Source of the DNA: Flaccisagitta enflata
Taxonomy: Eukaryota
Assembly (NCBI GenBank): GCA_965153355.1
Contig: OZ231126.1
Span: forward strand, 6,944,001-7,008,000
Direction of reading: 5' to 3'
Length of the DNA: 64,000 nt
The notes below the pieces were generated by a model, which worked only from the letters and a program-made list of their open reading frames with translations, did not search any database and was not told the origin of the DNA. The position numbers and the translations under genes are program-made. This document shows positions 27,786 to 30,700 of the stretch, piece after piece (position 1 is the first letter of the stretch; the number at the start of each line of letters is the position of its first letter).

Positions 27786-30700
27786 GTGAGAAAATGATGA
27801 TGATGATGATGATGATGATGATAATGATGATGATAAAGATGATAAAGATGATGAAGATGATGATGATGATGATGATGATGATGATGATGATGATGATGAT
27901 GATGATGATGATGATGATGATCGAGATAATGATGATCGAGATGATGATGATCAAGATGATGATGATGATGATGATGATGATGATGATGATGATGTTGAGG
28001 ATGATAACAATGAGGATAATGTTGATGAAAATGCAGCAGCTTGATTGTATTGAATGATAATGATGATGATGATAATCCGGATGATGATGATGATGATGAT
28101 GATGATGATGATGATGATGATGATAATGATAATGATGATGATGATGATGATGATGATGATGAGGATGATGATGATGATGATGATGATGATGATGATGATG
28201 ATGATGATGATGATGATGATGATGATGATGATGATGATGATGATGATGATGATGATGATGATGATGATGATGATGATTCATGCATCCTCTTATCCCTCTT
28301 AATAACTCATCTCTCTTTTCAGGATTGACGTCTTTGCCTCCTCTTTCTCCTTCATCGTGTTTGAAGAAACTCGACGCTCGTGGATGTGACATTCAGTCTC
28401 TTCCTCATAATCTGTTTCATCACAAATTGGAAGAGATCGACTTGGAAAGAAACAAAGGTGATGATGATGATGATGATGATGATGATGATGATGATGATGA
28501 TGATGATGATGATGATTCATGCATCCTCTTATCCCTCTTAATAACTCCTCTCTCTTTTCAGGATTGACGTCTTTGCCTCCTCTTTCTCCTTCATCGTGTT
28601 TGAAGAAACTCATCGCTCAAAACTGTGACATTCAGTCTCTTCCTCATAATCTGTTTGATCACAAATTGGAAGAGATCTACTTGGAGAGAAACAAAGGTGA
28701 TGATGATGATGATGATGATAATGATAATGATGATGATGATGATAATGAAGATGATGATGATGATGATGGTAATTATGATGCTGATGATGATGATGATGAT
28801 GATGATGATGATCATGACTTTGATGATGATGATGATGATAATTCATGCATCCTCTTATCCCTCTTTTCAGGATTGACGTCTTTGCCTCCTCTTTATCCTT
28901 CATCGTGTTTGAAGAAACTCAACGCTCAAGAATGTGACATTCAGTCTCTTCCTCATAATCTGTTTCATCACAAATTGGAAGAGATCTACTTGGCTGGAAA
29001 CGAAGGTGATGATGATGATGTTGTTAATGAGGATGATGATGGTAATAATGATGATGATGATGATGATGATGATGATGATGATGATGATGATGATGATGAT
29101 GATGATGATGATGATGATGATTGATGATAATGATGATGATGATGATGATGATGATGATGATGATGATGATGATGATGATGATGATGATGACGATTCATAC
29201 ATCCTCTTATCCCTTATAATAACTCGTCTCTCGTTTCAGAATTGACGTCTTTGCCTCTTCTTTCTCCTTCATCGTGTTTGAAGAAACTCGATGCTCGTGG
29301 ATGTGACATTCAGTCTCTTCCTCATAATCTGTTTCATTACAAATTAGAAGTGATTGACTTAGAAGGAAACAAAGGTGATGATGATGATGATGATTATGAT
29401 GTTGATGATGGTAATAATGATGATGATGATGATTATGATGACTCTGATGCTGATGATGATGATGATGATGATGATGATGATGATGATGATGATTAGGGTG
29501 GTCATGAAATAGGGTCAAATTTCAAAAAATGATATAATCTAGTTTTTTGCATGAATGTACCAAAAAAGAAGGTTTTCCCATAAGCAGAGGTCTGAATTTG
29601 AAGATTAAACCATGTCGGCAAAACTATAGGCTTCCTATGGCAAAAAAAAAGTCCCCATAGTAAGCCTATGGTTTTGCCGACAAGGTTTTCTGTTTGATTA
29701 CACACCTCAACTTGTGAGAAATCCCTCTTTTATTTGATATTTGTGCAAAGGGCCTAAGTATATCAATATATGAAATTTGACCCATTTCCCGACCACCCTA
29801 ATGATGATCCATGCATCCTCTTATCCCTCATGATAACTTGTCTCTCTTTTCAGAATTGACGTCTTTGCCTCTTCTTTCTCCTTCATCGTTTTTGAAGAAA
29901 CTCGACGCTCGTGGATGTGACATTCAGTCTCTTCCTCATAATCTGTTTCATCACAAATTGGAAGAGATCGACTTGAGAAAAAACAAAGGTGATGATGATG
30001 ATGATGATGATGATGATGATGATGATGATGATGATGATGATGATGATGATGATGATGATGATGATGAAGATGATGATGATTCTTGCATCCTCTTATCCCT
30101 CTCAATAACTCATCTCTCTTTCCAGAATTGACGTCTTTGCCTCCTCTTTCTCCTTCATCATGTTTGAAGAAACTCTACGCTCAAGAATGTGACATTCAGT
30201 CTCTTCCTCATAATCTGTTTCATCACAAATTGGAAGAGATCAACTTGGGACAAAGCAAAGGTGATGATGATGATGATGTTGTTAATGAAGATGATGCATC
30301 ATCATGATGATAGTAGTAATGATGATGATGACGATGATGATGATGATGATGATGATGATGATGATGATGATGGTGATGATGATGATGATGACGATGATGA
30401 TGATGCTTTTTTTCCATGGCTTAGATTCTGGGTGATAAAATCTTTTTAATCGCCTGCCACGGGACTCTACACCCCACATTGTCCGTCCGTCGGGGCTCTC
30501 CAATGAATTAGCGATCCCGAACTAGCGACTTCCATACTAGCGACACCCACACTAGCAATGTCCATGTTAGCAACACCCATATACTAGCCATATCCATACT
30601 AGCAACAACCATATACTAGCGACAGTGCATACTAGCGTCCGCCCATCCTTCCTTAAAAAAAACAGTATCTGACCATTAATCTGCCATCTTAGTTTTCAAA

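Follow-up and report, generated by a model that had tools for sequence, protein, structure and literature searches.

We report a tandem array of six exons in a gene of Flaccisagitta enflata, each exon encoding two leucine-rich repeats (LRRs), in which the differences between exons are concentrated in the same few codons, at predicted beta-strand positions. The array lies at 28323-30260 on the + strand of the 64,000-nucleotide (nt) stretch of contig OZ231126.1 that was analyzed (positions 6,944,001 to 7,008,000), which is referred to here as the window and to which all coordinates below belong. The gene appears to encode an animal LRR-Roc-COR (ROCO) protein of the MFHAS1-like kind. The simplest reading of the sequence is that selection has favored diversity on the predicted binding face of the LRRs, while the remainder of each exon has been kept alike by recent duplication or gene conversion.

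The exon array

Read directly, the array consists of six units of exactly 135 nt each, all on the + strand, which we call cassettes 1 to 6 (28323..28457, 28562..28696, 28871..29005, 29240..29374, 29854..29988 and 30126..30260). A search of both strands of the window for a conserved 16-nt core, allowing up to three mismatches, returned exactly six copies, all on the + strand, and no copy beyond the six units; when the cassette peptides were used in tblastn, the only further matches in the window were diverged modules within the two flanking exons. In all six units a pyrimidine tract and a CAG acceptor precede the exon and the donor AAG|GTGATGAT follows it. All six are phase 1/1, the cassettes ending in AAA or GAA followed by G|GT, and with one base carried over from the preceding exon each block translates without a stop into 45 residues of the form (G/E)LTSLPPLSPSSC-LKKLxAxxC-DIQSLPHNLFHHK-LEEIxLxxNK (G-LTSLPPLSPSSCLKKLDARGCDIQSLPHNLFHHKLEEIDLERNK in cassette 1). 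What one exon contributes is the second half of an LRR, a whole LRR of 22 residues and then the beta-strand of the following one, equivalent to two LRRs in all, and the two strand motifs of every cassette, LKKLxAxxCxIxxLP... and LEEIxLxxNK-G-LxxLP, agree with the LRR consensus. A single 44-residue cassette matches Pfam LRR_4 with E=4e-5 and a score of 24.2 bits; that this falls short of the cut-off of 27 is to be expected with so few residues.

The residues at the varied positions of the first and second strands are D-RG and D-ER in cassette 1, I-QN and Y-ER in cassette 2, N-QE and Y-AG in cassette 3, D-RG and D-EG in cassette 4, D-RG and D-RK in cassette 5, and Y-QE and N-GQ in cassette 6. 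Cassette 4 has the most diverged scaffold, cassette 5 has Phe in place of a conserved Cys, and cassette 6 has an N to S replacement at the asparagine-ladder position. A sequence-only reading of the window had proposed six tandem 135-nt two-LRR exons here, listed their strand residues and described them as symmetric in phase. The core search and the sequence itself bear out the exons, the listed residues are right letter for letter in all six cassettes, and exon 1, the cassettes and the terminal exon are in compatible phase throughout. Because boundaries, phase, LRR consensus and the homologous modules in the flanking exons all agree, we take the units to be exons, and it is reasonably probable that they are genuine coding exons, recently duplicated and/or homogenized, of an animal LRR-Roc-COR gene of the MFHAS1-like kind.

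Hypervariable positions

Among the six cassettes 27 of the 135 columns vary, and 14 of these fall within the 18 nt of just six codons (hypergeometric P=1e-8). The six are codons 18, 20, 21, 40, 42 and 43, corresponding to x5, x7 and x8 of each LxxLxLxxN motif and to exon nt 51-53, 57-62, 117-119 and 123-128 in every cassette. The a-priori set of all ten x2, x3, x5, x7 and x8 codons (30 nt) contains 15 of the 27 variable sites (P=1.8e-5). As a neutral yardstick we used the conserved intron flank, in which 11 of 46 columns vary: the six codons are more variable (14/18, Fisher P=1.3e-4) and the exon scaffold is less so (13/117, P=0.05). The mean pairwise proportion of nonsynonymous differences (pN) is 0.43 in the six codons and 0.038 in the scaffold, where the corresponding synonymous value (pS) is 0.051, and the mean pairwise distance in the intron flank is 0.109. 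The patch pN is thus about 8 times the scaffold pS and about 4 times the intron-flank distance, and after Jukes-Cantor correction the patch dN of 0.64 is about 12 times the scaffold dS of 0.053. Cassettes 1 and 2 alone differ at 9 of 18 patch sites and at 2 of 163 scaffold-plus-intron sites (P=5e-9).

The same columns stand out in a larger set of 16 peptides, made up of the six cassettes of the window and ten from nine marine metagenome open reading frames (ORFs) retrieved by two word-index searches. When the 44 columns are ranked by entropy, columns 42, 43, 21, 18 and 20 are the top five and column 40 is seventh; the LTSLPPLSPSSC segment contributes two further high-entropy columns, 10 and 7. 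All 16 preserve the LRR consensus, and the intron-derived flanks cannot be aligned. At the neighboring positions x2-x3, all 16 cassettes have KK in the first repeat (codons 15-16, for example 28364-28369) and 14 of 16 have EE in the second (codons 37-38, for example 28430-28435; one E to V, one E to K); within the window's own cassettes these positions are invariant apart from one E to V. The DIQSLPHNLF loop, which is also exposed, is nearly invariant as well. The KK and EE pairs form a conserved ladder of alternating charge beside the hypervariable stripe. An exact scan of the JGI metagenome contigs for the 23-nt cassette core gave no matches, and a profile-guided locus search of these contigs gave six loci, of which only L001 (1395 nt) is close, with no cassette upstream; the other five (L002-L006) were left aside, their similarity being confined to the GTPase core.

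An AlphaFold model of the LRRs of exon 1, a contiguous region that includes the homologous module and is not the spliced array, is a regular LRR solenoid (pLDDT 80.7, pTM 0.77). The strands assigned to this model by DSSP cover x3-L4-x5, the longer ones extending up to x7. Residues x5 and x7 alternate with the core leucines and would therefore face the concave side, with x8 at its edge; the direction in which they point is taken from standard LRR geometry, not from coordinates.

Mosaic history of the cassettes

Cassettes 1, 4 and 5 share the first-strand patch (GAY GCT CGT GGA), although cassette 4 is the one with the most diverged scaffold, and cassettes 3 and 6 share CAA GAA. When the cassettes are split by their first exon base (GGG or AAA) and by patch type, all four combinations are present. 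Patch similarity and scaffold similarity are decoupled and recombination is evident, and the history of the array is therefore mosaic. The pattern points away from simple rapid substitution and toward concerted evolution in which patches are preserved: old patch types kept apart amid homogenization, or conversion patch by patch, fit it at least as well as rapid point substitution does.

Two simpler origins for the pattern were considered and rejected. Duplication of a three-cassette block is contradicted by the first exon base and the patch types; blastn pairs the block of cassettes 2 and 3 with that of cassettes 5 and 6 at 84%, yet cassettes 2 and 5 differ at 12 of 18 patch sites. All of the variable sites could be derived from A-rich codons, but A-directed mutagenesis of the retroelement type is at odds with the adjacent A-rich KK codons (AAG AAA), which are invariant in all six cassettes, and retroelements of that type are not known from animals.

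We propose that recent duplication or gene conversion keeps the scaffold and the intron flanks alike while selection keeps x5, x7 and x8 of each beta-strand different. Varied residues would then run as a stripe along the concave, predicted ligand-binding face, beside the invariant KK/EE ladder, with the patches behaving as a limited library of alternatives that are kept diverse. By analogy with ROCO proteins and with nucleotide-binding LRR (NLR) proteins, such a surface may serve to couple recognition of varied partners by the LRRs to the Roc GTPase switch.

The gene around the array

The upstream coding exon, exon 1 (25409..27785, + strand), is open from 25409, with the first ATG at 25415. 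It carries a polyglutamine/(CAA)n tract and about nine LRRs, scores 69.6 bits against Pfam LRR_8 (cut-off 27) and ends AAA G|GTGAG in phase 1. A diverged copy of the cassette module makes up its last 44 residues (RLKTVP...LEEAYLSENK) and is matched by tblastn at 27590-27784 with E=2e-7. An (AAC)n tract of about 815 nt at 26070-26884 reads as polyglutamine within the open frame of this exon and is putatively coding.

The terminal exon (35770..39101, + strand, about 3.3 kb) follows a CAG acceptor at 35769 in phase 1 and opens with a cassette-like module, G-LTYLPTLLPTSP*RSSKAGNCAIKSIQASFIRPGLKLNLENNN, after which come a Roc GTPase, a COR-like region, a helical region and a tandem ubiquitin-like C-terminus. 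A frame of 1096 codons is open from 35811 to 39101. The Roc GTPase characteristic of ROCO proteins is evident both from profile matches and from its P-loop (GKQEAGKTS), DxxG (DLGGH) and SKxD (SKVD) motifs. Against Pfam Roc the protein of the window scores 25.0 bits, just under the cut-off of 27, and the paralogues P0005, P0006 and P0007 score 28.2, 30.4 and 14.1. When a profile of the family was compared with solved structures, the best matches were the Roco proteins 4wnr, 6hlu/8r4b and 3dpu (E=1.3e-10 to 1.9e-7).

The case for a COR domain is weaker. Pfam COR gave no match at E up to 5 in any of the four family proteins scanned, and the AlphaFold model of the terminal exon, built on 11 family members, has a mean pLDDT of 60.9, which is moderate confidence only; both results count against the assignment. 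The model aligns by Foldseek over 450-640 columns to LRRK1, LRRK2 and prokaryotic RocCOR tandems (E=1.5e-12 to 3e-9), with template-modeling (TM) scores normalized to the target of 0.58-0.66 for 3dpu and 4wnr, and HMMER alignments to MFHAS1 homologues extend some 200 residues beyond Roc. A COR domain is predicted, at the level of the fold only.

An exhaustive HMMER search with the terminal-exon product found 236 relatives, while a word-index search limited to near lengths found none. Those close to it, at 36-91% identity, come without exception from marine metagenomes or metatranscriptomes. Among named proteins the nearest are the MFHAS1 homologues of a brachiopod, bivalves and a gastropod (P0060, P0061, P0066, P0070, P0071, P0074 and P0080), at 24-27% identity over residues 22-440, approximately, of the terminal-exon product. 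Because of the Roc and RocCOR-fold matches, and because the nearest named relatives are animal MFHAS1 homologues, sequence and model together identify this as a putative animal ROCO gene of the MFHAS1-like kind.

Counted from the ATG with all cassettes included, the coding length would be 2371+810+3329 = 6510 nt, or 2170 codons; this sum is a whole number of codons, and the phases are therefore consistent throughout. The full array would lengthen the LRR solenoid by 12 repeats, between two exons that themselves bear diverged copies of the module.

At the other end of the protein, two beta-grasp units are predicted at residues 925-1090 or so of the terminal-exon product (about 38583-39080). This region of the model matches ISG15 and linear di-ubiquitin by Foldseek (E about 1e-6, TM to target about 0.45), and Pfam ubiquitin gives a faint match only, in the paralogue P0005 (E=0.054). 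A tandem ubiquitin-like tail is unusual on an LRR-Roc-COR protein. A marine metagenome ORF of 468 residues, P0084, has an LRR module of the terminal-exon type followed not by Roc-COR but by Ser/Thr/Pro-rich repeats and a C-terminal RING-finger-like motif; the module is therefore not confined to one architecture.

Introns and probable growth of the array

The intron before cassette 1 (27786..28322) is nearly all (ATG/GAT)n microsatellite; its 3' end is a conserved 46-nt segment (TTCATGCATCC...TTTTCAG). The five internal introns (span 28458..30125, + strand) likewise start GT(GAT)n and end with the conserved pyrimidine-rich 46-nt segment and CAG. They are intron 1 at 28458-28561 (104 nt), intron 2 at 28697-28870 (174 nt, the only internal intron open in frame, its conserved 3' segment lacking 17 nt), intron 3 at 29006-29239 (234 nt), intron 4 at 29375-29853 (479 nt) and intron 5 at 29989-30125 (137 nt). 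The last intron (30261..35769, + strand, 5.5 kb) is also rich in microsatellites and ends with (TC)392 and then TTTCTTTTCAG. The very long (TC)392 microsatellite, at 34979-35763, abuts the acceptor of the terminal exon. A (GAT)n run directly follows the GT of every cassette donor (introns 27786-28322, 28458-30125 and 30261-30405), and Met/Asp runs beside the cassettes in metagenome ORFs (P0001-P0004, P0160-P0164) come from the same microsatellite introns, showing that paralogues are arranged alike. A pure GAT repeat contains no GT and offers no cryptic donors; it may also serve as a substrate for unequal exchange.

The stretches between cassettes might instead be coding poly-Asp linkers. This was rejected because translation that reads past a cassette into the intron downstream of it meets a stop in five of six cases; in addition, three of the introns (104, 479 and 137 nt) are not divisible by three in length.

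The extra length of intron 4 is accounted for by a palindromic insertion at 29494..29800 resembling a miniature inverted-repeat transposable element (MITE), with 129-nt inverted arms, 29-nt terminal inverted repeats and TA flanks. In the source species' DNA runs its summed word depth reaches about 4-6 x 10^5, making it an extremely abundant repeat.

Unequal recombination within the introns is the most likely route by which the array grew. Since all of the introns share the (GAT)n start and the 46-nt end, they could misalign with one another, and whole units of exon plus intron would then be gained or lost with the frame intact.

Premature stop and expression

The first 13 codons of the terminal exon are followed by an in-frame TAG (codon 14, 35808..35810, + strand). 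P0005, P0009 and P0021 have Leu at this position and L001 has CTG, and the next conserved Leu is Ser in the copy of the window. With canonical splicing the product would end after the LRRs. The explanation that we take most seriously beside a working gene is that the locus is a pseudogene or a decaying paralogue which inherited its pattern from a functional family and makes at most an LRR-only protein that stops at the TAG after about 1073 residues. That this copy is non-functional or truncated has a substantial probability, although it is not the outcome we would favor.

Several results weigh on that side. The stop together with the lost core Leu suggests that the module at the start of the terminal exon is decaying, and the Ser at the asparagine ladder of cassette 6 and the Phe for conserved Cys in cassette 5 would fit with this. 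Passages of PMC3341825 describe brown-algal ROCO families as rich in pseudogenes and inactivated LRR exons. None of 12.2 million sampled RNA reads (about 6% of one polyA run of the source species, X23) matched 28278-30460, although this is no test of expression. All nine of the cassette matches are metagenome DNA ORFs, with no spliced cassette-to-cassette protein among them, which counts against the reading of the units as coding exons. A run from another organism (X5) also gave no matching reads, which is no proof of absence, and shares of about 0.13 in many metatranscriptomes were set aside as probably microsatellite words and no evidence. On the other hand, the frame of 1096 codons downstream of the stop is intact, with its G1, G3 and G4 motifs and all 33 family-invariant residues of alignment A1, and the six cassettes are all open, with perfect splice sites. 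In-frame AGs at 35822-35823 and 35852-35853 could act as acceptors that bypass the stop, and the stop itself could be an allele or a consensus error.

Whatever the state of this copy, the cassette type recurs in DNA of the source species and in related marine sequences and is a property of a gene family. At an identity of at least 95%, DNA contigs of two source-species runs cover 22 of 30 and 20 of 30 bins. The summed word depth of the cassette cores is 5160 and 6861 (DNA run X1), against about 100-120 in bins that look single-copy and 63 for a perfect unique-junction contig, which suggests tens more near-identical cassettes elsewhere, although depth is not copy number. Indirect evidence at the RNA level is provided by the MERC catalogue, which according to passages of 10.1101/386110 was assembled from marine eukaryotic metatranscriptomes. 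It includes proteins 91% identical to residues 75-213 (P0013) and 80% identical to residues 490-608 (P0017) of the terminal-exon product. A third MERC protein, P0090, joins a module of the exon-1 type directly to a terminal-exon module (…YGNK|GLKTLP…), with no intron residues and no cassette. Taken at face value, P0090 shows that the predicted phase-1 junction would be used in a relative and that a cassette-free form would exist; it does not separate a cassette-less gene from complete skipping, and repeats assembled at the protein level can be mis-joined.

Possible alternative splicing, selection and homogenization

The sequence-only reading had raised the possibility of combinatorial skipping, with up to 64 inclusion patterns. 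The main point of the array might accordingly be alternative splicing that yields many receptor isoforms from one gene, which we consider unlikely. Since every exon is phase 1/1 with identical splice signals, any subset would stay in frame, but symmetric phases are a precondition for the survival of any tandem exon duplication and are not evidence of regulated skipping. The six cassette donors are GTGATG, without the consensus G at +5, whereas the exon 1 donor is GTGAGA, a difference that could favor skipping. P0090 would be a product of the expected kind, but it is only about 53-55% identical to the gene of the window and may stem from a cassette-less gene or a mis-joined assembly, and the RNA reads sampled here, with the limit given above, contained no match. 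Precedents exist, in that skipping of LRR exons is documented for brown-algal ROCO genes in passages of PMC11378527 and for NLRP3 in passages of PMC6642158.

It seems quite improbable to us that there is no selection for diversity at all, the six codons being simply unconstrained and concerted evolution having erased the differences elsewhere, so that the hypervariability is illusory. A number of observations nonetheless tell in that direction and against selection. Inside the six codons the Nei-Gojobori pN/pS is 1.15, on 3.3 synonymous sites, and the third positions are as saturated as the rest of the codons. In the scaffold pN/pS is 0.74, not clearly below 1, and overall it is 1.05. Homogenization is acting, given that cassettes 1 and 4 differ at 2/18 patch and 7/117 scaffold sites and cassettes 1 and 2 at 9/18 and 1/117. 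Patches are shared among non-adjacent cassettes, and part of the diversity has thus been shuffled and not newly created. However, conversion would have to skip two patches of at most 12 nt repeatedly and yet homogenize the 54 nt between them, which is very unlikely unless selection removes converted patches. At 0.43 per replacement site the patches are more diverged than either neutral proxy (0.051 and 0.109), ten independent cassettes on other contigs vary most in these columns too, and x2, x3 and the DIQSLPHNLF loop are nearly invariant though exposed, so the contrast is position-specific. We therefore retain selection for diversity on the predicted binding face as the best reading, because relaxed constraint alone cannot give a patch pN about eight times the scaffold pS and because conversion that repeatedly spares two such short patches in a 135-nt exon is not otherwise credible. 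The test rests on six DNA sequences and ten peptide sequences.

Finally, it is scarcely credible that the units are a non-coding satellite, or a transposon-borne repeat, which happens to resemble LRR coding sequence: by word depth the unit and its microsatellite are multi-copy in the genome, and a transcript was not seen in the 12.2 million reads (no test of expression), but six of six frames are open with the LRR consensus intact, a single 44-residue unit already gives the Pfam LRR_4 match, the boundaries fall exactly at AG and GT in a phase that links two flanking exons with homologous modules, and in relatives the exon is conserved where the intron has diverged.

The sequence-only reading is thus partly supported. 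Its core, diversity focused on the predicted binding face and kept there by selection, was right, while it overstated the dN/dS signal, the set of variable positions and the splicing combinatorics. Variability does cluster at x5, x7 and x8, but x2 and x3, which it had included, are invariant, and its placing of the variable residues at beta-strand positions holds on the model of the homologous repeats of exon 1. Silent changes, which it had called rare, account for 6 of the 27 variable sites, and cassette 4 holds four of the six. Diversifying selection on binding specificity is favored by a patch pN above the scaffold pS and intron proxies, but not by the ratio within the codons themselves; computed from six DNA sequences, that ratio decides the question in neither direction.

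Other features of the window

Exons of a trypsin-like serine protease lie on the - strand at 9180-11247, possibly extending to 12809 (Pfam Trypsin E=1.5e-40 for 9180-9743 and a weaker E=2.5e-5 for 10675-11247). A 115-nt tandem repeat found by TRF at 11174-11596 adjoins and partly overlaps the protease ORFs. Segments 44380-50378 and 55288-61785 are copies of one another in direct orientation, a segmental duplication of about 6 kb; they are 94-99% identical and lie about 10.9 kb apart. There is a short interstitial telomere-like TTAGGG repeat at 21130-21222.

Implications

A broader scenario, rather doubtful as a whole but worth stating, is that a marine animal lineage independently evolved a system like the one proposed for brown algae, with many cytosolic LRR-Roc-COR receptors forming a large family and interchangeable two-LRR exons supplying their recognition surface. 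The microsatellite introns would act as built-in recombination sites that vary the number and order of cassettes between paralogues and individuals, selection would keep the library of x5/x7/x8 patches, and skipping would multiply the repertoire. If this is true, it would amount to germline-encoded, combinatorial intracellular immune recognition that signals through a GTPase with a tandem ubiquitin-like tail. It would also link the poorly understood MFHAS1 branch of the ROCO proteins to recognition of variable ligands, and the (GAT)n introns offer a concrete, plausible mechanism for gain and loss of cassettes. The value of the case is limited by the premature stop in this copy, by the small number of sequences behind the selection test and by the fact that the array has been read from sequence only.

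Comparison with known systems

Modular arrays of LRR exons under diversifying selection are already known from the brown-algal ROCO genes, and frame-preserving two-LRR exons from vertebrate NLRs. Passages of PMC3341825 describe brown-algal LRR-ROCO genes in which each 72-nt exon encodes one LRR, exons are intensely shuffled and four positions of the concave face are under positive selection, with many paralogues, pseudogenes and inactivated exons; they also cite the concave-face LRR diversity of the variable lymphocyte receptors (VLRs) and of plant NLRs. Parts of PMC11378527 present these genes (in Ectocarpus, Saccharina and others) as candidate immune receptors whose LRR exons, in phase 2, are alternatively spliced. 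As far as these passages go, the gene of the window resembles them in being a putative LRR-Roc-COR gene with tandem, equal-length, frame-preserving LRR exons and with diversity at a few predicted concave positions; the brown-algal COR domain, like the one predicted here, is hard to detect in standard Pfam scans. The brown-algal unit described there, however, is 72 nt, one LRR and phase 2, whereas that of the window is 135 nt, two LRR equivalents and phase 1, and the cassettes are not exons of the brown-algal kind. The window gene differs further in its (GAT)n microsatellite introns and in its predicted tandem ubiquitin-like end. Expression and splice variants have been shown in the brown algae, according to the same passages, while the array described here is known from sequence alone. 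Since the nearest named relatives of the window gene are animal MFHAS1 homologues and brown algae are stramenopiles, an independent origin is probable, and the array is probably a clean animal counterpart, by convergence, of the algal ROCO system.

In vertebrate NLRs such as NLRP3, as set out in passages of PMC6642158, 171-nt exons encode two LRRs each, and skipping of NLRP3 exon 5 alters function. These exons, with LRRs of the ribonuclease-inhibitor type, are like the cassettes in being of equal length with two LRRs each, a fixed border within the repeat and a preserved frame. They differ in that 171 nt encode alternating repeats of 28/29 residues and the 135-nt cassettes encode repeats of 22/23, and those passages report no hypervariable patches between neighboring exons. 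The signaling domain is NACHT in NLRs and the predicted Roc-COR in the gene of the window.

MFHAS1/MASL1 and the invertebrate MFHAS1 homologues share the LRR-Roc-COR order predicted for the window gene but are only distant relatives. Human MFHAS1 is encoded mostly by one large exon. Full-text searches of the main texts of open-access papers found no cassette array and no hypervariable LRR positions in animal ROCO genes, an absence that is no proof.

In the VLRs of lampreys and hagfish and in plant NLRs, the concave face formed by the LRR beta-strands binds ligand. As in the cassettes, diversity in these proteins is found at exposed beta-strand positions of LxxLxLxx, on that same face. VLRs are, however, extracellular and arise by somatic copying of cassettes into one gene, whereas the cassettes of the window are germline exons in series with no sign of somatic rearrangement, and the predicted product is a cytosolic GTPase with no evidence of a signal peptide. 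The hypervariable arthropod Dscam (Dscam-hv) offers a different parallel, with tandem exons of equal size whose differences are concentrated on binding surfaces; those exons are mutually exclusive and encode immunoglobulin half-domains, while the cassettes encode LRRs and can all be included in series. What is new here, compared with the modular LRR exons already known, is that the unit, the phase and the make-up of the introns are all different and that the patches stand out with unusual sharpness. If an animal MFHAS1-like ROCO family has come to share this design, that would suggest convergence on one way of diversifying an intracellular LRR sensor.

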